A stretch of DNA of 64,000 nucleotides from Acutalibacteraceae bacterium (GCA_045642725.1 JAZUJJ010000105.1:5584-69583), one strand, 5' to 3'. Shown: positions 22,276 through 37,019, numbered from the stretch's first letter. Notes: generated from the letters alone by a model not told the origin. A program made the numbers and translations.

Positions 22276-24066
22276 ATGGAGCAAATATTTAGTAATACTA
22301 CGCTGACCGTAAATCAGCTGATTGAAAAAATAGATACAGGAGAACTTGGCCTCCCAGAATTGCAGCGCCCTTTCATTTGGAAAGACTCAAAGGTGCGTGA
22401 TCTGTTCGATTCCATGATGCGTGGTTATCCGATTGGATATCTGATGCTGTGGGAGTGCCCGGAGCTGGAAAAGAAAAAGACCATAGGCGTTGATCCGCAT
22501 AGTTACAGTGCACCGAAGGAAGTTATTATTGACGGACAACAGAGACTTACCTCACTGTATGCCGTTATGAAAGGTAAGAAAGTCATAAATTCAAACTACT
22601 CTGAGCGGAACATCGTTATTTCCTACAACCCGCTTCAGAACAAATTTGAAGTTGGCTATCAGGCTACTAAGAAAGATCCGGAGTGGATTTATAACATCAG
22701 CGACCTTTTCACAACCACAAGCTCGCGTAAGTTTATCAATGCCTTTATTGACAACTTGGCAGAATCTCGCAAAGCTAAAGGAGAAGAACTGACTGACGAG
22801 GAAGAAGATACTATCTCCAATAACATCGACGAGGTGGCAAATCTCAGCAAACACATTCTGCCGGTATTTGAGATAAAAGCAAATGCCGAGGAAGAAGATG
22901 TGTCCGAAATCTTTGTGCGCGTCAATTCTGGTGGTGTATCACTGAAACAGAACGACTTTATTCTGACATTGCTTTCTCTGTATTGGGATGAAGGGCGTAA
23001 GCAAATTGAACAATTCAGCATGGAATCGACCTACCCGGCCAAGGACAAGGTTACTTCCTACAATCAGATCACCGAGGTATCCGCGCAAGATATTATCCGC
23101 GTTGTTATGGCATATGCCTTTGACAGAGCGCGTCTGAAATATGGATATAAGCTCTTACGCGGTGCCGATTTTGATAAGAAAGGTGTTATTGACCTTGAGT
23201 TGCGAGACCAGCGTTTTGATGAGCTCAAAGAAAAGTTGCCGGATGTTATCAATGTTCATAACTGGCATGAATTCCTGAAAGCTATTCTGAATGCGGGGTA
23301 CTTATCCGGAGATATGATTTTGTCTGGAAACGCGATTTACTACACCTATGCTTTCTATCTGATTGCAAAATATCGTTTTAACGCTTCCTACAATGACAAT
23401 ATGCATCTCACATCACTGTGGTTTTTCTATGCGTCGCTGGTTTCTTTATATACCGGGTCGTTTGAATCGACAGTAGAAAACCACCTCAATTCCATCAAGG
23501 AACTGAAAACGCTGGATGAGTATAAAAGCTTTATTTTATCCAGAGTGGATGAGCGCTTGACCAACGACTACTTCGACATTACCTTGCTCGGTTCTGAGGG
23601 CTTAGCCGTCTCCGGACGAGGCAACAATGCATGGAATGCTTATGTTGCATCCTTGAACATTCTTGATGCAAAAATACTGTTCTCAAAGAGCAATCTGTTG
23701 GTCGCAAAACTGTTTGAACCCGGAACAGACGGAAAACGCAAGTCGCTGGAGAAACATCACTTATTCCCGAAGGCTTATCTAAAGACGCTTGGCTATAATG
23801 ATTCAAAAATCAACCAGATGGCAAACTACGCTTACATCGATTGGAAGGATAATATGGAAATCCTTGATGAAGCTCCGTCTATTTATTACCCGGTCGTTTG
23901 CGCAGGAAAGACCGAGGAGCAGATTCTTACTATGGAAAAAGAAAACGCTCTACCGCACGGCTGGGAGAAAATGACTTACGAAGACTTCCTCGTTGAGCGG
24001 CGTAAGTTGATGGCGGCAAAAATTAAAGCGGCCTTTGAGATTCTCAAGAAGAACGTGACAGGGTGA
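22276..24066 (+). CDS. GmrSD-like DUF262 + DUF1524 nuclease (putative type IV modification-dependent restriction)
   Basis: LPELQRPFIW, IIDGQQRLTSL, IFVRVNSGG (DUF262); EKHHLFP..INQMANY (DUF1524/HNH-like). Confidence 0.85.
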   Translation: MEQIFSNTTLTVNQLIEKIDTGELGLPELQRPFIWKDSKVRDLFDSMMRGYPIGYLMLWECPELEKKKTIGVDPHSYSAPKEVIIDGQQRLTSLYAVMKGKKVINSNYSERNIVISYNPLQNKFEVGYQATKKDPEWIYNISDLFTTTSSRKFINAFIDNLAESRKAKGEELTDEEEDTISNNIDEVANLSKHILPVFEIKANAEEEDVSEIFVRVNSGGVSLKQNDFILTLLSLYWDEGRKQIEQFSMESTYPAKDKVTSYNQITEVSAQDIIRVVMAYAFDRARLKYGYKLLRGADFDKKGVIDLELRDQRFDELKEKLPDVINVHNWHEFLKAILNAGYLSGDMILSGNAIYYTYAFYLIAKYRFNASYNDNMHLTSLWFFYASLVSLYTGSFESTVENHLNSIKELKTLDEYKSFILSRVDERLTNDYFDITLLGSEGLAVSGRGNNAWNAYVASLNILDAKILFSKSNLLVAKLFEPGTDGKRKSLEKHHLFPKAYLKTLGYNDSKINQMANYAYIDWKDNMEILDEAPSIYYPVVCAGKTEEQILTMEKENALPHGWEKMTYEDFLVERRKLMAAKIKAAFEILKKNVTG

Positions 24067-24109
24067 AAAGCGATATTACAACTATGACGCTAAAACCAGA
24101 GGTAATTAA

Positions 24110-25144
24110 ATGAAGAATTTGTTTATCGATACAAATGTATGGCTATCGCTATATCATTTTACAAACGATGATCTTGCACAGTTTAGTAAACTCAAAGACC
24201 TCATAGGCTCTGAAATTCGGCTCTTTGTGCCTCAACAAGTCAGCGATGAAATTAGCAGAAATCGTGAGGCGAAATTGAAAGATGCTTTTAAAATGTTTGA
24301 ATTGAAAAGCATTCAATTCCCGGCATTCTGCAAAGCTTATGAGGAATACGAGTCTTTTAGTAAAGATTACGTGAGCATTTTATCAAGATATAAACAGTGG
24401 AAAAAGAAAATAGACGCAGATATTCTAAGCGAATCTTTACCTGCCGATATCATCATTACTGATTTTCTGGAACTTACAGAAACGATTTCTACAGAAGAAT
24501 ATGTAGATGCTGCCTATATGCGGTATCGAATAGGTAATCCTCCGGGAAAAGGTAACAAGTATGGTGACGCTGTTAATTGGGAGTGTCTTCTTCATGTTGT
24601 CCCGGATGGAGAAGATCTATACATAATTAGCACGGATAAAGATTATCGTTCCGAACTCTCAGATAATGAATTTAATCCGTTTTTGAAAAAAGAATGGGAA
24701 CAGAAAAAAGGGTCCAAAATTGTTTTTTATAGAAACCTTGTACCGTTTCTAAATGAACATATTAAAGATGTTCAGCTAAAAACGGAGCAAGAAAAGCAGG
24801 AACTTATCAAAAAACTATCTGATAGCTGTAACTTTGAAACTACCCATGGCCTTATTACAATGCTTGGAAAACATACGGGCTGGACAGAATCACAGATTGA
24901 AGAAATGTGTTCCATTGCTGAAGAAAATACGCAAGTTGCATGGATTCTTGGGGACCCAGATGTGCAATCATTTTACAGTAGATTATTATCAAAGATAAAT
25001 TACGAGGAGTTACCGGATTGTGCAACAAAACGCACGATGGAAAAACTCTTTGGTGATGCAATTGCAGCAGAAGCAGAAGCTAATGCAAGATCAGATTTTG
25101 AAGCTGACAGAGACGAAGCTTACGAAGAATACTATAAGCACTAA
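24110..25144 (+). CDS. PIN-like domain protein (DUF4935/PIN_8 type)
   Basis: LFIDTNVWL, GDAVNWECLL, ISTDKDY acidic PIN motifs. Confidence 0.8.
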   Translation: MKNLFIDTNVWLSLYHFTNDDLAQFSKLKDLIGSEIRLFVPQQVSDEISRNREAKLKDAFKMFELKSIQFPAFCKAYEEYESFSKDYVSILSRYKQWKKKIDADILSESLPADIIITDFLELTETISTEEYVDAAYMRYRIGNPPGKGNKYGDAVNWECLLHVVPDGEDLYIISTDKDYRSELSDNEFNPFLKKEWEQKKGSKIVFYRNLVPFLNEHIKDVQLKTEQEKQELIKKLSDSCNFETTHGLITMLGKHTGWTESQIEEMCSIAEENTQVAWILGDPDVQSFYSRLLSKINYEELPDCATKRTMEKLFGDAIAAEAEANARSDFEADRDEAYEEYYKH

Positions 25145-25555: not shown

Positions 25556-25627
25556 CATCAGTTACCATATTTCTTTAACAAAGATGTTTAATAAGAGTTG
25601 AGTGGGAATAATACAGTAATATTTTGA

Positions 25628-25660
25628 TTCCTTGTCGGATTGTTCCGACAAGGAATTTTT
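25628..25660 (+). terminator. Rho-independent terminator
   Basis: TTCCTTGTCGGA-TTGT-TCCGACAAGGAA then TTTTT. Confidence 0.85.
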
Positions 25661-25742: not shown

Positions 25743-25771
25743 TTGACATAAATTACTCAATATGATATAGT
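25743..25771 (+). promoter_or_regulatory. Sigma-A promoter of the radical SAM operon
   Basis: TTGACA-17-TATAGT with extended TG. Confidence 0.85.
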
Positions 25772-25830: not shown

Positions 25831-26226
25831 ATGAGGTTCTATTTTGGACTTTGGTGCATTTCAATATTGGCGGTTTTTTCGTCAGTTGTATATTTTACAA
25901 TTTCGTTGCTTAACGGAAATATGCCGAGTGGAAATGTTTGTTATATATTTTTGGCTCAGGTAATTCTATTTTCGGCTTCATGTTATAAAATGAGATTTGC
26001 CGAGGGATATACATTATTTCATTGTGTAATTTTTGTGTTTATTTGTAAATCAAAAGGACTTAAGGTTGATAACTGCCCCAAAAAATATATTCTTGAAACC
26101 GTAATGCCTGAAATAAAAATTTTAGCTTCAAAGTTCTATTTTTCTAAAGATCTGACCGAACTGCAATTATATTCGATGATTAAACGAGGTAACTCATTTA
26201 TCAGAGGAAAAAAGGCAGAGAAATAA
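25831..26226 (+). CDS. Hypothetical membrane protein (131 aa)
   Basis: First ORF after the promoter; hydrophobic N-terminal half. Confidence 0.6.
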   Translation: MRFYFGLWCISILAVFSSVVYFTISLLNGNMPSGNVCYIFLAQVILFSASCYKMRFAEGYTLFHCVIFVFICKSKGLKVDNCPKKYILETVMPEIKILASKFYFSKDLTELQLYSMIKRGNSFIRGKKAEK

Positions 26227-26235
26227 GGTGTTCAG

Positions 26236-27027
26236 TTGATGATATATGAAGTGAAAATACTTATCTCGTTTTTGATTTGTATATTGTTTTTTTCGCTTTA
26301 CGGTAGGAAGTTCGGCTTACCGTTAATACAATCTGCCGTTATTTCTTCTTTGGCCTGTGAAGTTTTGACTGTTGTCGGAGAGGTGTTCTATAATTTCAAT
26401 ATACATGATGAGTATTTATACCGTTTCAATAAATATACTTTGGCAATGATAATTTCAGGCTTACTTGTTGCTGTAACTCAGACATGTATATTAAAATTCA
26501 ATTTATTGCATTCTTTTGATTTCTTTGCACCGCTTCCGCTGTTGATTTATTCAATAGGACATACCGGATGTTATTTCGAGGGATGTTGCCACAGTTTCAA
26601 ATTCAGTGATAATTCGATAATAAATAAACTATTTCCTTTTTTTATAAAAGACGGAATCTTTTTTCAACAACTTCTGGAATGCATTTTTACTTTTATTTTG
26701 TTCTTGATAATAGTTTTACTTACCAGGAAAAAGAAGTATGATTTTGGTGGAAAAATGTTTCCTGTAATGATGATGTTATTCGGATTACATCTTTTTTTGT
26801 GGAACATAATCAGAGATGATGAAAAAATTATTAAAATATGTAAAATTGCCAATGCACAAAGTTCTGAATTCGGAGGGCCCGCTTATTTGGGAATTTCCGA
26901 TACGTCAATAAAGGCAATATTATTCATTATTTTAGGTGTTGTTTTATACATTACGATATTTATATATAATAGCAGCAGAGCCAAGCGGCAAAGAAATGGT
27001 TCCCATGAACAGGAGGGAAAAATTTGA
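26236..27027 (+). CDS. Lgt (prolipoprotein diacylglyceryl transferase)-like membrane protein with degenerate catalytic residues
   Basis: IGHTGCYFEGCC ~ GRxGCFxxGCC; FQQLLE ~ HPTQLYE; FGLHLFLWNIIRDD ~ YGxxRFxxEFFR. Confidence 0.7.
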   Translation: MMIYEVKILISFLICILFFSLYGRKFGLPLIQSAVISSLACEVLTVVGEVFYNFNIHDEYLYRFNKYTLAMIISGLLVAVTQTCILKFNLLHSFDFFAPLPLLIYSIGHTGCYFEGCCHSFKFSDNSIINKLFPFFIKDGIFFQQLLECIFTFILFLIIVLLTRKKKYDFGGKMFPVMMMLFGLHLFLWNIIRDDEKIIKICKIANAQSSEFGGPAYLGISDTSIKAILFIILGVVLYITIFIYNSSRAKRQRNGSHEQEGKI

Positions 27028-28940
27028 AAAATATATATTTTGTACAGGCAAATGTTTTATACGGCAATACTATTTATTTGCCGTATGCTGCAGGAGCAAT
27101 TGCATCTTATGCTTTTCAAAATGAAACGATAAAGGCAGAATATTCACTGAAAAGAATTATTTACTATCGTGAAAATGTTGATGAAGCTTTAGAATCTTTT
27201 GAAGAACCGTTTTTGATTGCATTTTCATGTTACATATGGAATTATGAATATAACAAAGCTCTTGCAAAAAAAGTGAAAGAGAAATGGCCTCACTGTAAAA
27301 TAGTTTTCGGAGGGCATAATGTTTCATCAAATTCACCGGAACTTTTAAATGAGCTTTCTTATGTTGATTTCCTTCTTCATGAAGAAGGAGAGGTGCCTTT
27401 TGAAAGATTACTTCTTACATTGATTGGAAAATACTCTTTTTCTGATGTTCCGAATTTATCATACAGAGATGAATCGGGTTCAATTAAAAAGAATGAGAAC
27501 CAAATATTTGATGTTGCAGATTTTCCGTCACCTTATCAGACAGGTATATTTGATGAAATAATAAACAGTACAGATTTGGTTTTGAACGGTATGTTTGAAA
27601 CAAACAGAGGCTGTCCGTTTGGCTGTGCATTTTGTGATTGGGGTATATATAAATCAAAAGTAAGACAGTTTCCTGAGGAACGAATAAAAAAAGATATAGA
27701 GTGGTTTGTTAAACATAAGATTGAATTTTGTACCTGTGCTGATGCAAATTTTGGTATTCTTGAAAGAGATAAAAAAATTGCCGATTGGATAATTGAGTCA
27801 AAAAAGAAATATGGTTACCCTTCAAAAATACAATTTTGCTATACCAAAGGCAGAAATGATGTGGTTTTTGACCTCAATAAAAGAATGAATGAAGTCGGGC
27901 TCAGTAAAGGAGCAACACTTTCTTTACAGACTTTTTCAAATACTGCATTAAAAAATATAGGCAGAAGTAATCTTTCTTATGAGCAGTTTTGTTCAGAAGT
28001 AAAAAGATATAACGAATCAGATATTCCCACATATACGGAAATAATTCTCGGCATGCCCGGTGAAACCTATGAAAGCTACTGTGAGGGACACAATAAGCTG
28101 TTAAAAGCCGGTCAGCACAATTCAGTTATTGTTTTTAATTGTGAGTTGTTGATGAATTCACGAATGGGTCAACCGGAAACAATAGAGGCATTTAAAATAA
28201 AGAGCTCAAAAACACCGTATAAACAGCATCATTGTGTTCCGCTTAATGATGATGTATGTGAATATTCTCATATTGTAACTTCAACATACAGCATGTCAAC
28301 TGAGGATTGGATTAAATCATGTTTATTTACGGTTTGTGTCGGATGCTTCCATAATCTCGGTTTGCTTCAGTGCTTTGCAATATATATGTATCAGGAACGC
28401 GGAATGGAATATTCTGATTTTTATAAATCACTTTTGTCATGGATATTTTCTGATCCGGATACATTGTGCGGAACGATATTTACAGATATACAGCATAGAT
28501 TGAAGCTTATAAGTGAAGAAAAGGGAGATTGGAAATATGTTAATCCCGTTTTCGGTGAAATAACATGGCCTTATGAAGAAGGCGCTTTCCTGAATATCAT
28601 TTTGGAAAAAGAAAGATTCTATAATGAAATAGTTTCATTTTTGGATTCTCTGAATATTCCCGATAAAATATATGCTGACTTAATTCAGTTTCAAAAGTTT
28701 ACTGTTAAGCATCCAATGCAAAAGAACATAAGATTTGAAACAAATTATAATTTAGCAGATTATTTTGTCAGTGCTTTAAACGGAGAAAAGATCGAATTAA
28801 CAGAAAAGCCAACCGTTTTGACGATGGAGGATAATAATATACCCGAGAAATGGGAAGATTATGCAAGAGAAATGGTTTGGTATGGTAAACGCGGCAGTAA
28901 AATAATAAATATCCGCTCGTTTAATATTTCTTATAAATAA
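27024..28940 (+). CDS. B12-binding radical SAM enzyme, paralogue 1
   Basis: N-terminal B12-binding domain (FSCYIWN, VFGGHN, EEGE) and ETNRGCPFGCAFCDWG; TTG start overlapping the previous stop. Confidence 0.92.
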   Translation: MKNIYFVQANVLYGNTIYLPYAAGAIASYAFQNETIKAEYSLKRIIYYRENVDEALESFEEPFLIAFSCYIWNYEYNKALAKKVKEKWPHCKIVFGGHNVSSNSPELLNELSYVDFLLHEEGEVPFERLLLTLIGKYSFSDVPNLSYRDESGSIKKNENQIFDVADFPSPYQTGIFDEIINSTDLVLNGMFETNRGCPFGCAFCDWGIYKSKVRQFPEERIKKDIEWFVKHKIEFCTCADANFGILERDKKIADWIIESKKKYGYPSKIQFCYTKGRNDVVFDLNKRMNEVGLSKGATLSLQTFSNTALKNIGRSNLSYEQFCSEVKRYNESDIPTYTEIILGMPGETYESYCEGHNKLLKAGQHNSVIVFNCELLMNSRMGQPETIEAFKIKSSKTPYKQHHCVPLNDDVCEYSHIVTSTYSMSTEDWIKSCLFTVCVGCFHNLGLLQCFAIYMYQERGMEYSDFYKSLLSWIFSDPDTLCGTIFTDIQHRLKLISEEKGDWKYVNPVFGEITWPYEEGAFLNIILEKERFYNEIVSFLDSLNIPDKIYADLIQFQKFTVKHPMQKNIRFETNYNLADYFVSALNGEKIELTEKPTVLTMEDNNIPEKWEDYAREMVWYGKRGSKIINIRSFNISYK

Positions 28941-28954
28941 AGATGGTGTGAAAT

Positions 28955-30871
28955 ATGTCCTGTGAAAAAAAGAAAGTATATCTTGTTCAGGTATCTGCTG
29001 CTTTCGGTGGAACAAGCTTTATCCCTTATACGGTAGGGTGCATTGCAGCCTATGCATGGTCAAAGGAAAATATAAAGCAGGATTATTTTCTTCCTGAATT
29101 TATTTATAAAAGAGATGATCTTGAAGAAGTTGTTAATTCTATTTCAGATCCTTTTATTGTGGGATTTTCGACTTATGTTTGGAATTTTGAATACAACTTA
29201 AAGCTTGCCGAAAGAATTAAAAGTGAGTATAAGAATTGTTATATTGTTTTTGGCGGCCATGATATTCCTCTTGACGGTTCAATGCTTAATGAATATCGGT
29301 TTATTGATTTCCTTATGCATGACGAAGGCGAAATTGCATTTGCTGAGCTTTTAACGACTTTAAGTCAGGGCGGAAAAATTGAAAATGTCAGAAACATTTC
29401 ATTCAGGAATTCTGATGGCGTAGTAACCAATCCTATTATCAGTTCAGAAACAATAGATTTTCCTTCTCCTTATTCAAGCGGAATGTTTGACAATCTTGTT
29501 GGGGAAAACGGAAAAGATTTTGTTGCAACATTTGAAACAAATCGCGGATGTCCTTTTAAGTGTGCTTACTGTGATTGGGATACAATAAAGGATGGATTAC
29601 GCCAATTCCCAATGGAAAAAATAAAATCTGAAATTGATTGGATAGCTGAGCATAAAATAGAGTTTACATGGTTGATCGATGGTAATTTCGGAATTCTGCC
29701 AAGAGACGAGGAAATCATTGATTATTTGATAAAGGTAAAAAGTGAAACGGGCTATCCCAAAAGAACGAATCTTTTCTTTACCAAGAATGATCCGGAGCTT
29801 GTTTTCAGACTTAATAATAAGCTTGATAAGGCCGGCTTGAGCAAAGGCGCATGTATTTCTTTTCAGAGTATGTCACCTTCAGTTCTTAAAAACATTGGGC
29901 GTCAGAATATTTCCAATGAAAAGTTCCGTGAGCTTATGACGATGTATAATAAGAATAATATTCCGACTTTTTCTGAAATAATCGTTGGGCTGCCGGGAGA
30001 AACCTATGAGAGCTTTTGCGATGGTATAGGTCAGCTTCTTGAAGCCGGGCAGCATTATTCGTTTTATGTTTATCCATGTGAATTACTGAAAAATTCAATT
30101 ATGGCTCAGCCGGAATACCTTAATCAGTTCGGTATAAAATATGTTATAACTGCTCTGAACCAACATCACCGTGAAGTGCCTAAGGATGGTATAGAAGAGT
30201 ATTCACGGATTGTTGTCGGAACAAATTCAATGACACCGAATATGTGGGTCAAATCGTGCTTGTTCGGAATCTGCGTAAGAACTTTTCATAGTCTTGGATT
30301 ACTTCAATATTTTGCTTTGTATCTTCGCCATGAAAAAGATATTGCTTATGTAAGCTTTTATAATGATCTTCTTGAATGGATGCTGAATAACAGAGAAAGT
30401 GTTTGCGGTAAAGTTTTTAATGATTTGAAAGACAGGTACGAGAAAATTATCAGTGGTTCAGGTTCTTTTTTATATGCGTTTCCGAAATACGGTGATGTGG
30501 TTTGGCCATTTGAAGAAGGAGCTTTTCTGGAAATAATTTCTGATTTCGATTTGTTTTTTGATGAAATAAAAAGCTTTTTATCAAAATATGATATTGATGA
30601 CGGCATCAGGTGTGAATTACTTGAATATCAGAAAAGTATGATAAAAATTCCGGCCAAGAAATCTTTTTCACTTAAATTGAATTATGATTTTCCGACATTT
30701 GTCAGAAAGATTCTGACAAATGAAGCTGATTCATTGCAGCAAAAAAATACAGTTGTTTCTTTTACCGGTTCCGACATACCGAAAGATTGGGAGACTTTTG
30801 CAAGAGAAGTTGTATGGTATGGACGAAAGGGCGGAAAAACTTTACTTGAAACCGAGGTAAGCATTTCTTGA
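28955..30871 (+). CDS. B12-binding radical SAM enzyme, paralogue 2
   Basis: FSTYVWN, VFGGHD, DEGE; ETNRGCPFKCAYCDWD. Confidence 0.92.
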   Translation: MSCEKKKVYLVQVSAAFGGTSFIPYTVGCIAAYAWSKENIKQDYFLPEFIYKRDDLEEVVNSISDPFIVGFSTYVWNFEYNLKLAERIKSEYKNCYIVFGGHDIPLDGSMLNEYRFIDFLMHDEGEIAFAELLTTLSQGGKIENVRNISFRNSDGVVTNPIISSETIDFPSPYSSGMFDNLVGENGKDFVATFETNRGCPFKCAYCDWDTIKDGLRQFPMEKIKSEIDWIAEHKIEFTWLIDGNFGILPRDEEIIDYLIKVKSETGYPKRTNLFFTKNDPELVFRLNNKLDKAGLSKGACISFQSMSPSVLKNIGRQNISNEKFRELMTMYNKNNIPTFSEIIVGLPGETYESFCDGIGQLLEAGQHYSFYVYPCELLKNSIMAQPEYLNQFGIKYVITALNQHHREVPKDGIEEYSRIVVGTNSMTPNMWVKSCLFGICVRTFHSLGLLQYFALYLRHEKDIAYVSFYNDLLEWMLNNRESVCGKVFNDLKDRYEKIISGSGSFLYAFPKYGDVVWPFEEGAFLEIISDFDLFFDEIKSFLSKYDIDDGIRCELLEYQKSMIKIPAKKSFSLKLNYDFPTFVRKILTNEADSLQQKNTVVSFTGSDIPKDWETFAREVVWYGRKGGKTLLETEVSIS

Positions 30872-31632
30872 AAAAGTCATTTTATGACATCAGTAATTTG
30901 TATTCAGAATTCAAATCAGTATCTGTTGTTATTTGCATTACTGATGAAACCGATAGCTTAAGAACAAATCTTGATAAACTTATTTTGTCATGTAATGCGG
31001 AGGATTTGGTTCAGATTTTACTTTGTACTCATGAAAGGACTGCTGTTCAGACAATAAAAATTGCAGAGGAATACAAGCAGAGATATCCTTTTGTTGAAAT
31101 ATATTCACAGCAAATCAAATCATCAGGTTATATTTTACTTAAAGAGACATTGCCTCTTGTTAAAGGAACTCATGTAATATATGCTGCGGCAGATAATGCT
31201 ACAGATTTATCTGTGGTTGGTGAGTTTGTTTCAAAGCAAAAAGAAAATTCAAATTGTGTTCCCTGCGTTTCGAGATGGATAAACGGAGGAAAATTAGTTG
31301 GATACGGGTTCATTCGCAAATTACTGAGCCATCTTTTTCAGCGTTTTATCTCTGTGCTGTATAACAATAAGTACACAGAATTTTCTTTTCCTTATCAGAT
31401 TGCTTCGGTCAGATTATATGACGCTTTGATTTTAAATGAAAACGGTGTGTTTTCATTTTTTGAAGCCAAAATGAAAATGCTGAAACTGAATGTTGCCTTT
31501 TCAGAACTGCCAATGACATGGCGTGACAGAACAGACGGAAGAAAACATTTCAGACCATTGAGGGTCTTGGCTTATTTCAGAATTGCTTTTAAAGTTCGGT
31601 TTATGAAAATGAAAGAGTGTATTAATATTTAA
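30868..31632 (+). CDS. GT2 glycosyltransferase, polyprenol-phosphate (DPM-synthase-like) type
   Basis: GTHVIYAAADNATD, SRWINGG, ELPMTWRDRTDG; the DxD motif is degenerate. Confidence 0.75.
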   Translation: MKKSFYDISNLYSEFKSVSVVICITDETDSLRTNLDKLILSCNAEDLVQILLCTHERTAVQTIKIAEEYKQRYPFVEIYSQQIKSSGYILLKETLPLVKGTHVIYAAADNATDLSVVGEFVSKQKENSNCVPCVSRWINGGKLVGYGFIRKLLSHLFQRFISVLYNNKYTEFSFPYQIASVRLYDALILNENGVFSFFEAKMKMLKLNVAFSELPMTWRDRTDGRKHFRPLRVLAYFRIAFKVRFMKMKECINI

Positions 31633-31649
31633 CAAAGAAGGGAATTGAA

Positions 31650-33569
31650 ATGAAAAAGGTTTATTTTGTTCAACCGGGCAATTGCATCGGGAATAATGTG
31701 TATTTACCATATTCTGTTGGTTCAATAGCTGCGTATGCTTGGAGTAACGAGTCAATAAAAGAAACTTATGAACTGGCTGATTTGCTTTTTCTTTTTGAAG
31801 ATATCGACAAGCAGATTCAGTCAATGGATTCTCCTTTTCTGGTCGGCTTTTCCTGCTATATCTGGAATTATGAATATATTTTAAGGTTTGCAGAAAAATT
31901 AAAGAAAGCATATCCGGAATGTTATATTCTTTTTGGCGGACACAATGTTAATTCTTATAATGCAAAACAGTTAGAAGAATTTCCGTTTGTTGATTTTTTA
32001 ATTCATGATGAAGGTGAAATACCGTTCCGCGATTTGCTTCTTGCATTAAAAAACGGTACTGATTTTTCAAAAATAACTAATTTTTCATACAGAGATCAAA
32101 ACGGAAACATATGCAAAAACGAATCCGTAATATATGATGTCGATGATCTTCCTTCCCCTTACAGTATGGGGATCTTTGATAAAATAATGAAAAATTATGA
32201 TTATAATTTTTCTGTTATACTTGAAACTAACAGAGGCTGTCCTTATGGCTGCTCATACTGTGACTGGGGAATATACAAGTCAAAGATCCGCTGCTTCCCG
32301 TTGGAAAGGGTGTATTCCGATCTTCAATGGTTTTCCGATAACAAGATAGACTATTGCCTGTGCTCCGATGCGAATTTCGGTATCATAAAAAGAGATATGG
32401 AAATCGCAGAAAAGCTTATTGAAATCAGGAACAAATCGGGATTTCCCAATAAAGTTAATTTCTGCACTGCCAAGAGCGGAGAAAACTTCGTGTATGAAAT
32501 CAGCAAAAAGCTTAATGATGCAGGTGTTTTGAAAAGCGCTTCTTTATCAATACAGACACTTAATCCTGATGCATTAAAAAATATCGGACGCACAAATTTC
32601 ACAAAAGAGAAATTTCAGGAAATGGATCAGATGTACAGGAAAGTCGGAGTTTCAACTCTTGCAGAGCTTATACTCGGACTGCCCGGCGAAACGTTGAAAA
32701 GCTTTTGCGAAAATATCTGTTTGTTTTTTGAGGTTGGACATCATATACCCATCAGCGTATATAATTGCCAGCTTTTGATGAATTCAAAAATGTCTCAACC
32801 CGATTATATAAAACGGCACGGAATCAAATCGGTAAAAATGCCGCTCTCATTTCATACCAACAAAGAGGAACAGGACAAATATCCGGAATACATTGATATT
32901 GTTATTGAAACAAATACGCTTAGTAAAGAGGATTGGGTTTCGGCAAATTTGTTTTATTTTCTCACCTATGCTTTTCACGGAATGGGATTGATGCAATTTT
33001 TTGCCCAATATATACATTATGAGCTTAATGTATCATACTATGATTTTTATTCAAAGCTGTATGAATATGTTTTTGAAAATAAGAATACGGTTGCCTTTTC
33101 AGTCTTTAATAAAATACGAAATATTCATTTAGAACTGCTTCAGGGAAAAGGATCATATGGATGCGAATTGGATTGGGCCGGCGATGTAATATGGCCGTTT
33201 ACGGAATTTGCATATTTAAGTATTGCTCATGATAAAGATTTGTTTTACGAGGAAATGAAACCGTTTTTAAAACAATTCAACATTAAAGATGATATATTTG
33301 AGGAACTGTTTCTTTATCAGAAGAGTATGGTTAAATATCCGGGCCTGAAGGGATTTGAAATAAATCTGAAAAAAGATTGGCATACATATTTTTGCCACAT
33401 TTTTGATAATGTTTATATTCCTTTACCGGAATTGGAAAATGTTTTGACTGTTTCGTGTCCTAATACTCCTGATGATTGGAAAACATTTTCAAGAGATATG
33501 GTTTGGTATGGCAGACGCGAAAGAAGAATGCTTTGTGTAAATCAAGCAGTTGTTAAATATATTTATTAA
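31650..33569 (+). CDS. B12-binding radical SAM enzyme, paralogue 3
   Basis: FSCYIWN, LFGGHN, DEGE; ETNRGCPYGCSYCDWG. Confidence 0.92.
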   Translation: MKKVYFVQPGNCIGNNVYLPYSVGSIAAYAWSNESIKETYELADLLFLFEDIDKQIQSMDSPFLVGFSCYIWNYEYILRFAEKLKKAYPECYILFGGHNVNSYNAKQLEEFPFVDFLIHDEGEIPFRDLLLALKNGTDFSKITNFSYRDQNGNICKNESVIYDVDDLPSPYSMGIFDKIMKNYDYNFSVILETNRGCPYGCSYCDWGIYKSKIRCFPLERVYSDLQWFSDNKIDYCLCSDANFGIIKRDMEIAEKLIEIRNKSGFPNKVNFCTAKSGENFVYEISKKLNDAGVLKSASLSIQTLNPDALKNIGRTNFTKEKFQEMDQMYRKVGVSTLAELILGLPGETLKSFCENICLFFEVGHHIPISVYNCQLLMNSKMSQPDYIKRHGIKSVKMPLSFHTNKEEQDKYPEYIDIVIETNTLSKEDWVSANLFYFLTYAFHGMGLMQFFAQYIHYELNVSYYDFYSKLYEYVFENKNTVAFSVFNKIRNIHLELLQGKGSYGCELDWAGDVIWPFTEFAYLSIAHDKDLFYEEMKPFLKQFNIKDDIFEELFLYQKSMVKYPGLKGFEINLKKDWHTYFCHIFDNVYIPLPELENVLTVSCPNTPDDWKTFSRDMVWYGRRERRMLCVNQAVVKYIY

Positions 33570-33585
33570 GCTATAAGGAGATGAG

Positions 33586-36069
33586 ATGCGCTTGAAGTTT
33601 TGGGATTATATTATACTTACCGCTGCAAATAATAACCAAGCTGAAGCTTTCAGGCAGCATCTTATTTCTAAACAGAGAGATGGTCAGATAGACGATGCAA
33701 CATGTTGCATCGTCATTTCTGATGGTGACAGAAGTATTGGTTCGGGATGCGCTTTCCTTAAGGCTTTAGAAGAAATATATTGCATTGAAGGCACTCATGT
33801 ATTCCCAAAGGATAAAAAAATACTTTTAATAAATTCGGGGGGGGAAAGCAGAAGAATACCTCAGTATTCTGTTTGCGGTAAGGCCTTCGCTCCGTGGCCA
33901 TTTGATAATTGTGATTTTTTTGATAAAATTTTAGAATCATTCAATCATTTGACATCTTTTTTTGATGGTGGAATGATTATATCCACAAGCGATATCCTTT
34001 TGGATACAAATATTGATTTCCATTTTTTGTATAATAACACGGCTTTTGCTGTTAAAACCGTTGCTGAAAATGGTGTTAACCACGGAGTGTTTAAATGTGA
34101 AGGCTCAAAGGTGATTGATTTTTTACATAAAAAGCCGATAGATGTTCTGAAAAATCAAGGTGCTGTTAATTCGGCGGGAGAAGTATTATTAGATACAGGA
34201 GCTGTTTATTTTACACCGACTTGTTTGGAACGAATATACAACACATTATGCTGCCATAAAAAAATAAATACGGAATTTGCAGATGTTAAATTAAATTTTT
34301 ACAGTGATTTTTTGTATCCGTTGGCAACTAAAGGAAATTTGAATGATTATTTAAGTCAGTCCGGGGAGACAGAAGTAAATGATCGCTTGATTCAAGCAAG
34401 GGGAAAAATATACGATTGTCTCTTTAATCAGGAAGAATTGTTCGTTAACATCTTGCCTGATCAGAGATTTATTCATATCGGAACTACAAAAGAAGTACTT
34501 GAATTGTTCACAGATTTGAATGGTTATAAATCCTATAACAGCATTATCGATTCTAAAGCTGAAATAGGTAAAGGAACATACATTGAAAATTGTATTATAA
34601 GGAACGGCTGTTCAATCGGTAACAACTGTTTTATTTCCTCCGCAGAACTTGCTGATGTCAATATTCCCGATAATACCGTTGTCCATTGCATCAGATTGAA
34701 CAACCGGAAATATACGGCAAGAGTTTTTTCTGTTGACGGATTTGATAAAACTCGTGATTTTTGGAGTAAAAAGCAGTACGGGGTTTACGATTCACGTTTG
34801 GAGGCTGTCAAGGCATCTTTGAAAGGAATAAATGGTTGTGTCAGTTTAGAATCAGGCTTTTCGGATGCGGATTTTACAGAACCGTTTGAATGGAAAAGTT
34901 GGATTGCATTTTTATCCGATTTTAATTCATATGAAAAAATCAGTAATCAGATAGTAAAAAATACTATAAAAAAAATAGATTATTCAGAGCGTGTTGCCCT
35001 GAATAAAAGCACTTCAGTATGCAGATTACCGGTCAGAATAAATTTTGGAGGAACTTGGTCGGATGCAGCTCCTTATTGTATTGATTTTGGAGGAGCTGTT
35101 TTGAATGCGACTGTGTCTATTGATGGTAATCTGCCTATAAGCGCAGCAGTAAAAAGAATAAATAAAGATCGTATTATTTTACGCTGCGAAGATATGAATT
35201 CAGAGCATTCGTTTTTTGATGTTCAAAGCTTGACGGATTTTAGTAATGTGAATGATGTTTTTGCTTTGCATAAGGCAGCTTTGGTTGTAAGTGGTATAAT
35301 TCCTTTATCAGCAAAATGCAACATGAATGAGATACTGAAAAAACTCGGAGGAGGATTTGTGCTGTCAACTTGTGCTGAAAATCTTCCAAAGGGATCTGGA
35401 TTGGGAACGAGCAGTCTTTTATTAAGTGCCGCTATAAAAGCATTGTATGATATTACCGGAAGGGAGTTAAGCGAAAAAGCACTCTTTGAAAAAGTTTTTT
35501 GTGCTGAGCAATTAATGAAAACCGGTGGCGGTTGGCAAGACCAGGTTGGTGGCTTTATTAATGGATTTAAATTGATTACCACAGATAAAGGAATAGATCA
35601 AAATATAAAATACGAATTATTTAAACCCAGCGAACAGATCCTGAATTTATTAAAGCATAAAGCGGTTTTAATTTACACCGGAGAACGTTTTTATGGCAGA
35701 TTTATTCTCAGCGATATTATGAAAAGATGTTCTTACGGTGATGGAGAAACTTTAGAAACAATATGTGAATTAAAAAAGCTTGCATTATTTGAAAGGGAAG
35801 TATTTGAAAACGGTAATGCTGAAATGTTTATCAACTGTATAAACAGGCATTCGGAATTATTGAAAAAGCTTTCCGGCAAAATTGAAAATGAATCGTATCA
35901 AAAAATTACAAACAAATTTTCCGAATTGATTGAATGTTGTTGCATTTGCGGTGCCGGAGGAGGAGGATTTGCATTTTCAATATTAAAAAAAGATGTTGAA
36001 CGTGAATGGTTTATTGAAATGGCCCATAAAAATAATATTAAGATATACAAACCGGAATTTATTCTGTAA
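33586..36069 (+). CDS. fkp: Bifunctional L-fucokinase / fucose-1-phosphate guanylyltransferase-like protein
   Basis: LLINSGGESRRIPQYSVCGKAF, NHGVF, LDTG, FIHIGTT (pyrophosphorylase); LPVRINFGGTWSD, PKGSGLGTSS, TGGGWQDQ, CGAGGGGF (GHMP kinase). Confidence 0.85.
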   Translation: MRLKFWDYIILTAANNNQAEAFRQHLISKQRDGQIDDATCCIVISDGDRSIGSGCAFLKALEEIYCIEGTHVFPKDKKILLINSGGESRRIPQYSVCGKAFAPWPFDNCDFFDKILESFNHLTSFFDGGMIISTSDILLDTNIDFHFLYNNTAFAVKTVAENGVNHGVFKCEGSKVIDFLHKKPIDVLKNQGAVNSAGEVLLDTGAVYFTPTCLERIYNTLCCHKKINTEFADVKLNFYSDFLYPLATKGNLNDYLSQSGETEVNDRLIQARGKIYDCLFNQEELFVNILPDQRFIHIGTTKEVLELFTDLNGYKSYNSIIDSKAEIGKGTYIENCIIRNGCSIGNNCFISSAELADVNIPDNTVVHCIRLNNRKYTARVFSVDGFDKTRDFWSKKQYGVYDSRLEAVKASLKGINGCVSLESGFSDADFTEPFEWKSWIAFLSDFNSYEKISNQIVKNTIKKIDYSERVALNKSTSVCRLPVRINFGGTWSDAAPYCIDFGGAVLNATVSIDGNLPISAAVKRINKDRIILRCEDMNSEHSFFDVQSLTDFSNVNDVFALHKAALVVSGIIPLSAKCNMNEILKKLGGGFVLSTCAENLPKGSGLGTSSLLLSAAIKALYDITGRELSEKALFEKVFCAEQLMKTGGGWQDQVGGFINGFKLITTDKGIDQNIKYELFKPSEQILNLLKHKAVLIYTGERFYGRFILSDIMKRCSYGDGETLETICELKKLALFEREVFENGNAEMFINCINRHSELLKKLSGKIENESYQKITNKFSELIECCCICGAGGGGFAFSILKKDVEREWFIEMAHKNNIKIYKPEFIL

Positions 36070-36095: not shown

Positions 36096-37019
36096 GTGAA
36101 AATGAAAGCAAAGAAAATAGCAAAAAGAGTGGTACTTACTCTTGTTTCTCTTATTCTTGCGGGGGTAGTCATTATGACGGGCATTATGTTTTTCCACTAT
36201 CCGCATTACAGAAAAAATAAAAGGCAGCTTGAGCTTAAAGGCCCTGATACCGCAGGTGAAATAAGAGTTATGAGCTGTAATGTACGCTGTATCAATCCTC
36301 TTGATACCGGGAAAAAGAGCTGGTTTTACAGAGCTGATTTACTGCTTAAGGGCATAGAAAATGAATGCCCCGGTGTAATCGGTTTTCAGGAAGTGACAAA
36401 ATGGCAGTACAATTATCTGACCGCAGCACTGCCTCAGTTTGATTCGGTGATAACCTACCGTGATAAGATGATCAATTCTGAGGGCTGTCCCGTTTTTTAC
36501 AGAACCGATATGTATAAGCTCATTGATAAGGGCTCCTTCTGGCTTTCGGAAACCCCCGAAAAAATGAGTAAGGATTGGGGAGCAGCCTGCTACAGAATTT
36601 GCAGCTATGTTATTCTTGAAGAGCTCGGTACGGCAAAACAATTCGTGGTGTTTAATGTTCACCTTGACCATATCAGCGACGAAGCGAGAATAAACGGAAT
36701 AAATGTTGTTCTTGATAAAATCAAAGCTTTCGGTTCGCTGCCGTCGGTAATAATGGGAGATTTCAATGCGGAAGAGGATTCGGAAACCTATGCGGCGGTA
36801 ACCGAAAACTTCCTTGATGCAAAATATCAGACCGAAAACACCATGACAAGCTGTACCTATCAGAATTGGGGCGCCGGACTTGACAATAACTGTATTGATT
36901 ATTTCATGATTTCCAAGGACGGCTTTGATGTAAAGGAATACAAGGTGCTTACGGATACCTATGACGGAGTCTATGCCAGTGACCACTTCCAGCTGCTCAC
37001 CGTTCTTAATCTGAAGTAA
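36096..37019 (+). CDS. Endonuclease/exonuclease/phosphatase (EEP) family protein with N-terminal membrane anchor
   Basis: MSCNVR, GFQEV, NVHLD, MGDFN, IDYF, SDH. Confidence 0.9.
   Translation: MKMKAKKIAKRVVLTLVSLILAGVVIMTGIMFFHYPHYRKNKRQLELKGPDTAGEIRVMSCNVRCINPLDTGKKSWFYRADLLLKGIENECPGVIGFQEVTKWQYNYLTAALPQFDSVITYRDKMINSEGCPVFYRTDMYKLIDKGSFWLSETPEKMSKDWGAACYRICSYVILEELGTAKQFVVFNVHLDHISDEARINGINVVLDKIKAFGSLPSVIMGDFNAEEDSETYAAVTENFLDAKYQTENTMTSCTYQNWGAGLDNNCIDYFMISKDGFDVKEYKVLTDTYDGVYASDHFQLLTVLNLK

Follow-up and report, generated by a model that had tools for sequence, protein, structure and literature searches.

A seven-gene operon encoding three TokK-like cobalamin radical SAM enzymes and a predicted sugar-activating enzyme in a gut member of the Acutalibacteraceae

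What would a gut bacterium do with three distinct radical S-adenosylmethionine (SAM) enzymes that depend on cobalamin and are encoded next to a predicted sugar kinase and a glycosyltransferase-like protein? This question is raised by an operon in a stretch of 64,000 nucleotides from an uncultured Acutalibacteraceae bacterium (GCA_045642725.1 JAZUJJ010000105.1:5584-69583), the whole of which is referred to here as the window. Seven intact open reading frames (ORFs; g1 to g7), all on the plus strand and all present as claimed in an earlier note on this DNA, occupy positions 25831-36069. They are tightly packed (spacing of -4 to +17 nt, with a 4-nt overlap at two junctions) and have a GC content of 0.32-0.35, compared to approximately 0.44-0.49 for the flanks and remaining window. 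To our knowledge, the known cases of radical C-methylation by cobalamin radical SAM enzymes come almost exclusively from pathways for antibiotics, cofactors and lipids. The operon is part of a highly diversified and undescribed family of putative "radical-SAM sugar-tailoring" loci in gut Acutalibacteraceae (Oscillospirales), and, with somewhat more confidence than doubt, we read it as an accessory operon for sugar activation, radical C-methylation and transfer of the product, destined for the cell envelope, to a lipid carrier.

Three TokK-like radical SAM enzymes

Radical_SAM and B12-binding domains were detected with Pfam in g3 (rSAM1, 27024-28940, 638 aa), g4 (rSAM2, 28955-30871, 638 aa) and g6 (rSAM3, 31650-33569, 639 aa). 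The B12-binding domain (PF02310) scores 37.5, 28.8 and 32.7 bits, with the gathering score set at 32.1, such that two of the three pass and the remaining one lies slightly under, and the B12 domain of TokK aligns with all three proteins. In a sequence search of the Protein Data Bank (PDB), residues 3-581 of the 639 residues of g6 match TokK (7kdx) with an E value of 2.5e-86, and this alignment includes the C-terminal substrate-binding domain. The same protein matches CysS (9n1b) at E 5.7e-51 and, marginally, OxsB at E 4.5e-7. The presence of three B12 radical SAM enzymes, which the earlier note had proposed, is thus borne out by full-length homology to TokK.

The residues expected of this enzyme class are retained. 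In an alignment of the three window enzymes with seven relatives, Cys197, Cys201 and Cys204 of the CxxxCxxC motif for the [4Fe-4S] cluster are invariant, as are Trp72 and Trp206, the counterparts of Trp76 and Trp215 in TokK. In TokK, Trp76 lies under the corrin and Trp215 is positioned between cobalamin and the cluster, and a hydrophobic residue on the lower face of the corrin has been tied to radical methylation in a 2026 review (PMC12931638). The top NCBIfam match of all three proteins is the KedN5 C-methyltransferase family (NF033712); this match is restricted to the N-terminal 380-440 residues and reaches 210-248 bits against a cut-off of 700. Weaker matches are found to the lipid families HpnR, HpnJ and "ladder" (E 1e-11 to 1e-22) and to C-methyltransferases of peptides that are made on ribosomes and modified after translation (RiPPs; TIGR03975 at 1e-13 to 1e-20, and also ApyD). 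The window enzymes constitute a subfamily that is related to, but separate from, the KedN5 family and that falls in no curated subfamily. Together, the sequence comparisons support their assignment as class-B cobalamin-dependent radical SAM methylase homologues of the TokK/ThnK/CysS/KedN5 clade.

The comparison with these characterized enzymes is informative in both directions. TokK and ThnK (PDB 7KDX/7KDY), which methylate the C6 side chain of carbapenems, and CysS and KedN5, which perform iterative methoxy-group methylation, have the same succession of B12 Rossmann domain, radical SAM barrel and C-terminal domain as the window enzymes, along with the CxxxCxxC motif, the Trp under the corrin and the Trp beside the cluster. 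In contrast, sequence identity is low and the hosts are actinomycetes or a myxobacterium rather than a gut Clostridium. The genomic context also differs: the characterized enzymes are encoded with beta-lactam or nonribosomal peptide synthetase (NRPS)/polyketide synthase genes, whereas the window family consists of arrays of two to nine distinct paralogues accompanied by genes for sugar activation and lipid-carrier glycosyltransfer.

The window enzymes are only 41-43% identical to each other, and each belongs to its own orthologous clade shared across loci (R19, R16 and R25 for rSAM1, rSAM2 and rSAM3, respectively), which led us to reject a recent tandem duplication as their source. A maximum-likelihood tree of 168 radical SAM proteins and eight distant outgroup sequences resolves approximately 45 clades, nearly all of which have one member per locus. 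The arrays are therefore sets of distinct orthologues rather than recent duplicates. Outside the window, the family comprises more than 3,300 database proteins from metagenome-assembled genomes (MAGs) of Clostridia, which are unnamed or labelled only "radical SAM protein" or "hypothetical protein". Fifteen of the 25 genomes of the window's genus, its own included, hold TokK-like copies at E <= 1e-100, arranged in tandem arrays, with up to approximately nine copies per genome or up to 12 when weaker radical SAM matches are counted. The hosts, surveyed with one genome per species, are Acutalibacteraceae, "Ruminococcaceae UBA1425/UBA1767" and Ca. Fimenecus from ruminant and other guts. Some arrays (L024 and L025; G015:C250 and G022:C34) contain nine radical SAM genes in approximately 15 kb, four of them TokK-like and the others in size classes of ~494 aa and ~606-612 aa.

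Sugar-activation, glycosyltransferase-like and membrane-protein partners

The last gene of the operon, g7 (33586-36069), encodes an 827-aa protein that is predicted to be a bifunctional sugar-1-kinase/sugar-1-phosphate nucleotidyltransferase. Its two domains, Fucose_pyrophosphorylase (PF07959, 2.2e-59, residues 75-386) and GHMP_kinases_N (PF00288, 2.2e-9, residues 581-654), bear out the Fkp-like protein that had been proposed and mark it as a two-domain Fkp homologue. The kinase domain matches Bacteroides fragilis FKP (5yys) at 1.7e-40. Relative to the L-fucokinase/GDP-L-fucose pyrophosphorylases of B. fragilis and plants (5YYS), the domain order, the GHMP motif and the nucleotidyltransferase motif GGxSRRxP are retained, but g7 is approximately 120 aa shorter, scores 294 bits against a cut-off of 721 for the NCBIfam Fkp equivalog (NF009948), and is swapped for a GDP-heptose-type module in sister loci. 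Because g7 is interchangeable with this module (an HddA-like kinase plus an HddC-GmhB-type nucleotidyltransferase/phosphatase), its specificity is probably not for L-fucose. The "fucose-like" sugar of the earlier note is accordingly not established, given both the score and the alternative module.

Between the second and third radical SAM genes lies g5 (30868-31632), a 254-aa protein without transmembrane helices. An AlphaFold (AF2) model built from 13 family members has a mean predicted local distance difference test (pLDDT) score of 89.4, and the top 19 matches of this model in a Foldseek search of the PDB are all DPMS, ArnC or GtrB (E 2.5e-12 to 1.4e-8), the best being Pyrococcus DPMS (5mlz, E 2.5e-12, TMq 0.75). 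A g5 homologue at a related locus (L016) passes the Pfam glycosyltransferase family 2 (GT2) threshold (PF00535, 29.8 bits, 7e-7), and about half of the database relatives of g5 carry this domain. The predicted structure thus supports a GT2 fold like that of polyprenyl-phosphate glycosyltransferases (DPMS, ArnC and GtrB). In related loci, a 410-aa polytopic membrane protein (M410) is also encoded. It has no Pfam match; Asp151, Gly68 and Gly76 are invariant in the family, and its model (pLDDT 86.9) matches the GT-C enzymes ArnT (probability 0.98), ALG3, AglB/PglB, AftA and EmbB, although weakly (E >= 0.057, TM <= 0.37).

These folds recall three-component glycosylation systems (GtrA/GtrB/GtrC, CsbB/YfhO, ArnC/ArnT, and DPMS with a GT-C enzyme), with which g5 shares the DPMS/ArnC/GtrB-like GT2 fold and whose GT-C enzymes are the best structural matches of M410. 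The likeness is incomplete: g5 does not have the C-terminal transmembrane helices, the GT-C likeness in related loci is weak and the corresponding gene is missing from the window genome, no GtrA-type flippase was recognized, and radical SAM arrays have no precedent in three-component systems.

To evaluate whether these genes are kept together, one genome per genus was examined across the family (151 genomes). The radical SAM family is present in 9 and the GT2-like family in 8 of these genomes; both occur in 7, and in all 7 they are adjacent (Fisher p = 9e-10). A second survey clustered the ORFs of approximately 100 loci all-against-all. Among the 73 Acutalibacteraceae array loci, the neighbours include the GT2-like protein (34 loci), M410 (21), a short-chain dehydrogenase/reductase (SDR) epimerase/dehydratase (17), the Fkp-like protein (14), an HddA-like GHMP kinase (13), a nucleotidyltransferase fused to a GmhB-type phosphatase (13) and a small cupin (11). 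Related loci have two to nine radical SAM genes along with either an Fkp-like gene or the GDP-heptose-type module, and two cassettes recur, M410-M350-GT2-FKP-R4-R1-R11-R7 and 2HADH-HddA-cupin-NT/GmhB-R0-.... The window set, R19-R16-GT2-R25-FKP, recurs at locus L011 (GCA_045640865.1) and partly at L080. Co-conservation of the radical SAM array, the GT2-like gene and the sugar kinase/nucleotidyltransferase, the check that had been proposed for this cluster, therefore holds across genera.

More distant radical SAM homologues (26-34% identity) are found in Alphaproteobacteria, Planctomycetota, Nitrospinota, Leptospirae and DPANN archaea. Their neighbours are HddA-like kinases, SDR epimerase/dehydratases, nucleotidyltransferases, DegT aminotransferases, thiamine pyrophosphate (TPP) E1 alpha/beta pairs, aldo-keto reductases and Wzt-like ABC ATPases, a gene content that marks these regions as predicted sugar-nucleotide or O-antigen-type loci. 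At L085-L110 (for example, L090, L098, L101 and L102), the distant TokK-like genes stand beside TPP-dependent E1 alpha/beta, aldo-keto reductase, HddA-like kinase and SDR genes. The likely products of such loci are branched sugars or sugars of higher carbon number.

Individual arrays have further components. Those at L018, L019, L021 and L022 include a 510-527-aa flavin adenine dinucleotide (FAD)-dependent oxidoreductase and a 342-401-aa FNR-like protein that ends in a 2Fe-2S domain, a pair that could form a dedicated module for electron supply or for sugar redox steps; the array at L067 includes the FAD-dependent oxidoreductase without an FNR-like partner. At one locus only (L011, 329-3514), the genes directly upstream of M410 specify an adenylation enzyme, a protein with a condensation domain and a carrier protein of 74 aa. 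This NRPS-like trio could be of relevance, because TokK and CysS act on pantetheine- or carrier-linked substrates.

The first two genes of the operon show a different pattern. The product of g1 (25831-26226) is a 131-aa small membrane protein that matches no family in Pfam or NCBIfam. That of g2 (26236-27027) is a 263-aa membrane protein with a divergent Lgt fold, and the 3' end of its gene overlaps the start of rSAM1 by 4 nt. An Lgt-like protein had been proposed, and in part this stands, since g2 passes the Pfam LGT threshold (PF01790, 1.4e-8) over its C-terminal two thirds. However, it scores only 32.7 bits against 334 for the Lgt equivalog, and the signatures of prolipoprotein diacylglyceryl transferase (GRxGNFxNxE and YGxxRFxxE), the N-terminal part and the head domain are not kept. 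When aligned with the canonical Lgt that is encoded elsewhere in the same genome, GRWGNFANQE corresponds to GHTGCYFEGCC and YGAERAVVE to FGLHLFLWN, such that a Cys-rich motif (GHTGCYFEGCCHSF) stands in place of the Lgt signature.

A second genome of the same genus (G005), which has no TokK-like array, encodes a g2 homologue (28% identity) preceded by a 168-aa protein to which g1 is 25% identical (E 2e-5). This pair (L114 8484-9729, G005:C87) has no radical SAM gene nearby. Both g2 proteins have the motif GH..C.F..CCHSF, which could represent a metal site within an Lgt fold that has been put to a new use. From these two occurrences, g1 and g2 appear to be a conserved two-gene module that exists independently of the radical SAM genes. 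Neither gene was detected by tblastn in 22 other array loci, and neither joins a cluster in the all-against-all ORF clustering; a word-based search of 5.8 billion proteins returned no relative of g2 beyond itself, and a PDB sequence search returned no match to it. Core membership of g1 and g2 was rejected, as they are absent from the other arrays examined and the G005 pair, the sole clear homologues, is without an array. The possibility that they are diverged or remnant forms of M410 and of the 350-aa membrane protein (M350) encoded at sister loci was also rejected (tblastn noise at E >= 0.015; hhalign probability of 0.1%). The seven genes listed in the earlier note, g1 and g2 included, are accordingly not a fixed unit.

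Proposed function and competing explanations

All functions that we ascribe to the operon are inferred from gene context. In the proposed scheme, g7, in which both domains are recognizable, would phosphorylate a free sugar at C1 and convert it to a nucleoside diphosphate (NDP)-sugar. Judging from homology and gene context, the three non-redundant TokK-like enzymes would each add at least one methyl group to unactivated sugar carbons in the cytoplasm, with either the NDP-sugar or a lipid-linked sugar as substrate. The anchor-less g5 would, from its DPMS/GtrB/ArnC-like fold, place the sugar on polyprenyl phosphate, and a membrane transferase would then move it to a cell-envelope polymer or lipid. 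In related loci, this last role could fall to the weakly GT-C-like M410; in the window's genome, which has no M410, g1 and the Lgt-fold g2 are found in that position and are possibly the transferase.

Because loci mix different orthologous radical SAM enzymes (two to nine) with either the Fkp or the GDP-heptose-type module, the locus family probably yields a range of differently C-alkylated surface sugars. A broader idea, which we advance tentatively and hold at rather less than even, is that modular arrays of up to nine distinct radical SAM enzymes produce, on nucleotide or polyprenyl carriers, sugars that are multiply C-alkylated, branched or chain-extended and that are displayed on the envelope, both in gut Acutalibacteraceae and, distantly, in several other phyla. 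If this is true, glycan modification would gain a new class and the TokK clade its first role in primary metabolism or the envelope, and the cassette diversity would amount to a surface-variation system akin to O-antigen or capsule loci.

Several observations weigh against an envelope-sugar pathway. The characterized close relatives TokK, ThnK, CysS and KedN5 all serve in antibiotic tailoring, and their substrates are linked to pantetheine or a carrier and are not sugars. The assignment of g5 rests on predicted structure and on a Pfam-passing homologue, and to this extent the GT2 claimed earlier is upheld, but the window copy itself lies under the PF00535 threshold (14.3 bits versus 23.3, E 0.041). 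It also has AAD where relatives have DSD at the DxD position, with only the second Asp (Asp109) invariant, and no membrane anchor: its C-terminus is a single amphipathic helix (residues 230-244) with no transmembrane segment, an organization that resembles that of eukaryotic DPM1. The GT-C assignment of M410 is weak (E 0.06, TM 0.37), neither an M410 homologue in the window's genome (97.5% complete) nor an M410 remnant in the window was found, and Fkp-like genes are also present in relatives without arrays. Finally, CobS and a cobalamin riboswitch were not found in the window's genome. The organism therefore probably imports corrinoids and is a predicted corrinoid auxotroph that relies on uptake. 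The genome encodes five proteins with B12-binding domains, namely the three radical SAM enzymes, a 795-aa protein on C91 and a 226-aa protein on C117.

Precedent for C-methylation of sugars by B12 radical SAM enzymes exists in GenK, GenD1, Fms7 and MoeK5, which act on aminoglycoside and moenomycin sugars (PMC9204698). These enzymes share with the proposed pathway cobalamin-dependent radical methylation of a sugar carbon, and MoeK5 works in a lipid-linked saccharide pathway (PMC9204698). They differ in that they belong to another sequence cluster of the class, are absent among the top matches of the window enzymes, occur as single enzymes per pathway, all of them antibiotic, and are not tied to Fkp, HddA or a polyprenyl-phosphate glycosyltransferase. 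In full-text literature searches, no paper was found in which TokK-like enzymes are described together with Fkp, GDP-heptose, O-antigen or polyprenyl-phosphate glycosyltransferase genes, and none was found for Acutalibacteraceae. The earlier view that no described cluster has this combination accords with this result, as no characterized pathway was found.

The antibiotic role of the relatives, including the MoeK5 precedent on a lipid-linked sugar, also lends itself to a different explanation, namely that the enzymes tailor a diffusible product of secondary metabolism rather than an envelope glycan, for example a C-alkylated glycoside, a nucleoside-sugar or a moenomycin-like phosphoglycolipid antibiotic. 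The sporadic distribution (9 of 151 genera), the position of the operon in an AT-rich island adjoining defence genes and rlmD, and the NRPS-like trio beside the closest relative locus, L011, are consistent with such a product. However, the trio is confined to that one locus, and genes for an exporter, for resistance, for a scaffold synthase or for a regulator are absent from the loci. The constant partners are instead of envelope type (polyprenyl-phosphate glycosyltransferase-like, polytopic GT-C-like and GDP-heptose-type genes), and the distant homologues reside in O-antigen- or capsule-like loci with Wzt-like ATPases. We therefore consider a secondary metabolite unlikely.

Two other explanations are more doubtful. 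In the first, the radical SAM enzymes would methylate the lipid part of the product, whether this is the polyprenyl carrier or, in a glycolipid, an acyl/alkyl chain, and the sugar genes would supply only the head group. Hopanoids and other lipids are methylated by B12 radical SAM enzymes, and families of this kind (HpnR, HpnJ and "ladder") are among the weaker matches described above; moreover, polyprenyl-phosphate glycosyltransferase-like and membrane proteins are constant partners, and g2, which has a lipid-handling fold, is translationally coupled to rSAM1. These lipid-family matches are nevertheless far weaker than those to TokK and KedN5, and the Lgt-like gene is not conserved with the arrays. 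In both cassette types, the first radical SAM gene is directly 3' of the nucleotidyltransferase gene (FKP-R4 and NT/GmhB-R0), and the distant homologues are found in clusters for tailoring of soluble NDP-sugars, all of which makes lipid methylation improbable.

In the second, the enzymes would act on the sugar by radical chemistry other than methylation, for example epimerization, ring contraction, dehydration or C-C coupling. The class does include such non-methylases (OxsB, and also BchE), and two to nine paralogues per locus exceed the plausible methylation sites on one sugar. Against this stand the similarity values for OxsB (4.5e-7) and TokK (2.5e-86) and the invariance of the Trp under the corrin, a residue reported as typical of radical methylases, and we give this idea little credence. 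It is scarcely credible that the operon is a RiPP cluster in which the enzymes C-methylate a ribosomal peptide in the manner of PoyC, with g1 or an unannotated short ORF as precursor. The weak matches to TIGR03975 and ApyD speak for this idea, but the arrays are not accompanied by a conserved short ORF (>= 70 aa, among the ~100 clustered loci), a protease or an exporter. In addition, g1, a membrane protein, occurs among array loci only in the window and pairs with g2 in G005 without a radical SAM gene, and the neighbours conserved across phyla are sugar enzymes.

If the arrays do act on envelope sugars, a large enzyme family (more than 3,300 proteins) would gain a new substrate class, and undescribed C-alkylated sugars would be predicted on abundant uncultured Clostridia of ruminants and other guts. 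Surface-glycan diversity would also be tied to corrinoid availability in a host that is unable to complete B12 synthesis. The non-redundant cassettes provide ready orthologous groups for the assignment of regiochemistry, and the Fkp or HddA module points to the likely substrate precursor, which makes the envelope-sugar hypothesis directly testable in vitro.

Transcription unit and genomic setting

Upstream of the operon, a terminator-like hairpin (25626-25657, plus strand) with a 13-14-bp stem and a T-run closes the preceding unit. It is followed by a sigma-70-type promoter-like site (25743-25771, plus strand), TTGACA-17-(TG)TATAGT, which has a TG extension, lies 60 nt 5' of the first ATG, matches the consensus at 11 of 12 positions and has the top score in the region. 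The AT-rich stretch shows no enrichment of promoter-like sites taken as a class (57 observed versus 46.6 expected), and for this reason a single promoter for all seven genes, as claimed before, is plausible but not more than that. No inverted repeats bracket the promoter, and a phase-variable (invertible) promoter was rejected on this basis. No riboswitch was found with Rfam in the operon leader; the sole Rfam family over its gathering score in the window is a distant T-box leader (RF00230, 56952-57203, minus strand, 111 bits).

Further upstream is rlmD. Between it and the operon (22276-25144) are the genes for a restriction endonuclease of the GmrSD type (596 aa, PF03235, 6e-34) and for a protein with a PIN_12 domain (344 aa), which together resemble a small islet of defence genes at this same variable site. 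Related clusters have a GC content that is on average 2.4 points under that of their flanks and lower in 40 of 45 cases, and clusters of the window type are 7-11 points lower. Given this lower GC content, recent horizontal acquisition is likely. A fixed chromosomal site, as for O-antigen loci, was considered and rejected: the flanking genes of the window are not beside other arrays, with the exception of the endonuclease/exonuclease/phosphatase (EEP) family, which is found near arrays at three other loci only.

The EEP gene of the window (36096-37019, plus strand; PF03372, 2.2e-10) encodes a membrane-anchored protein and begins 26 nt 3' of g7; PPC-domain and Big_2 proteins are also encoded downstream. 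No plus-strand terminator was found between 36069 and 36096, and the EEP gene may be co-transcribed with the operon. Its GC content is closer to the host level than that of the operon, and its membership of the operon is uncertain. In another Acutalibacteraceae MAG (L073, 5303-7917), three tandem EEP paralogues are located near a single TokK-like gene.

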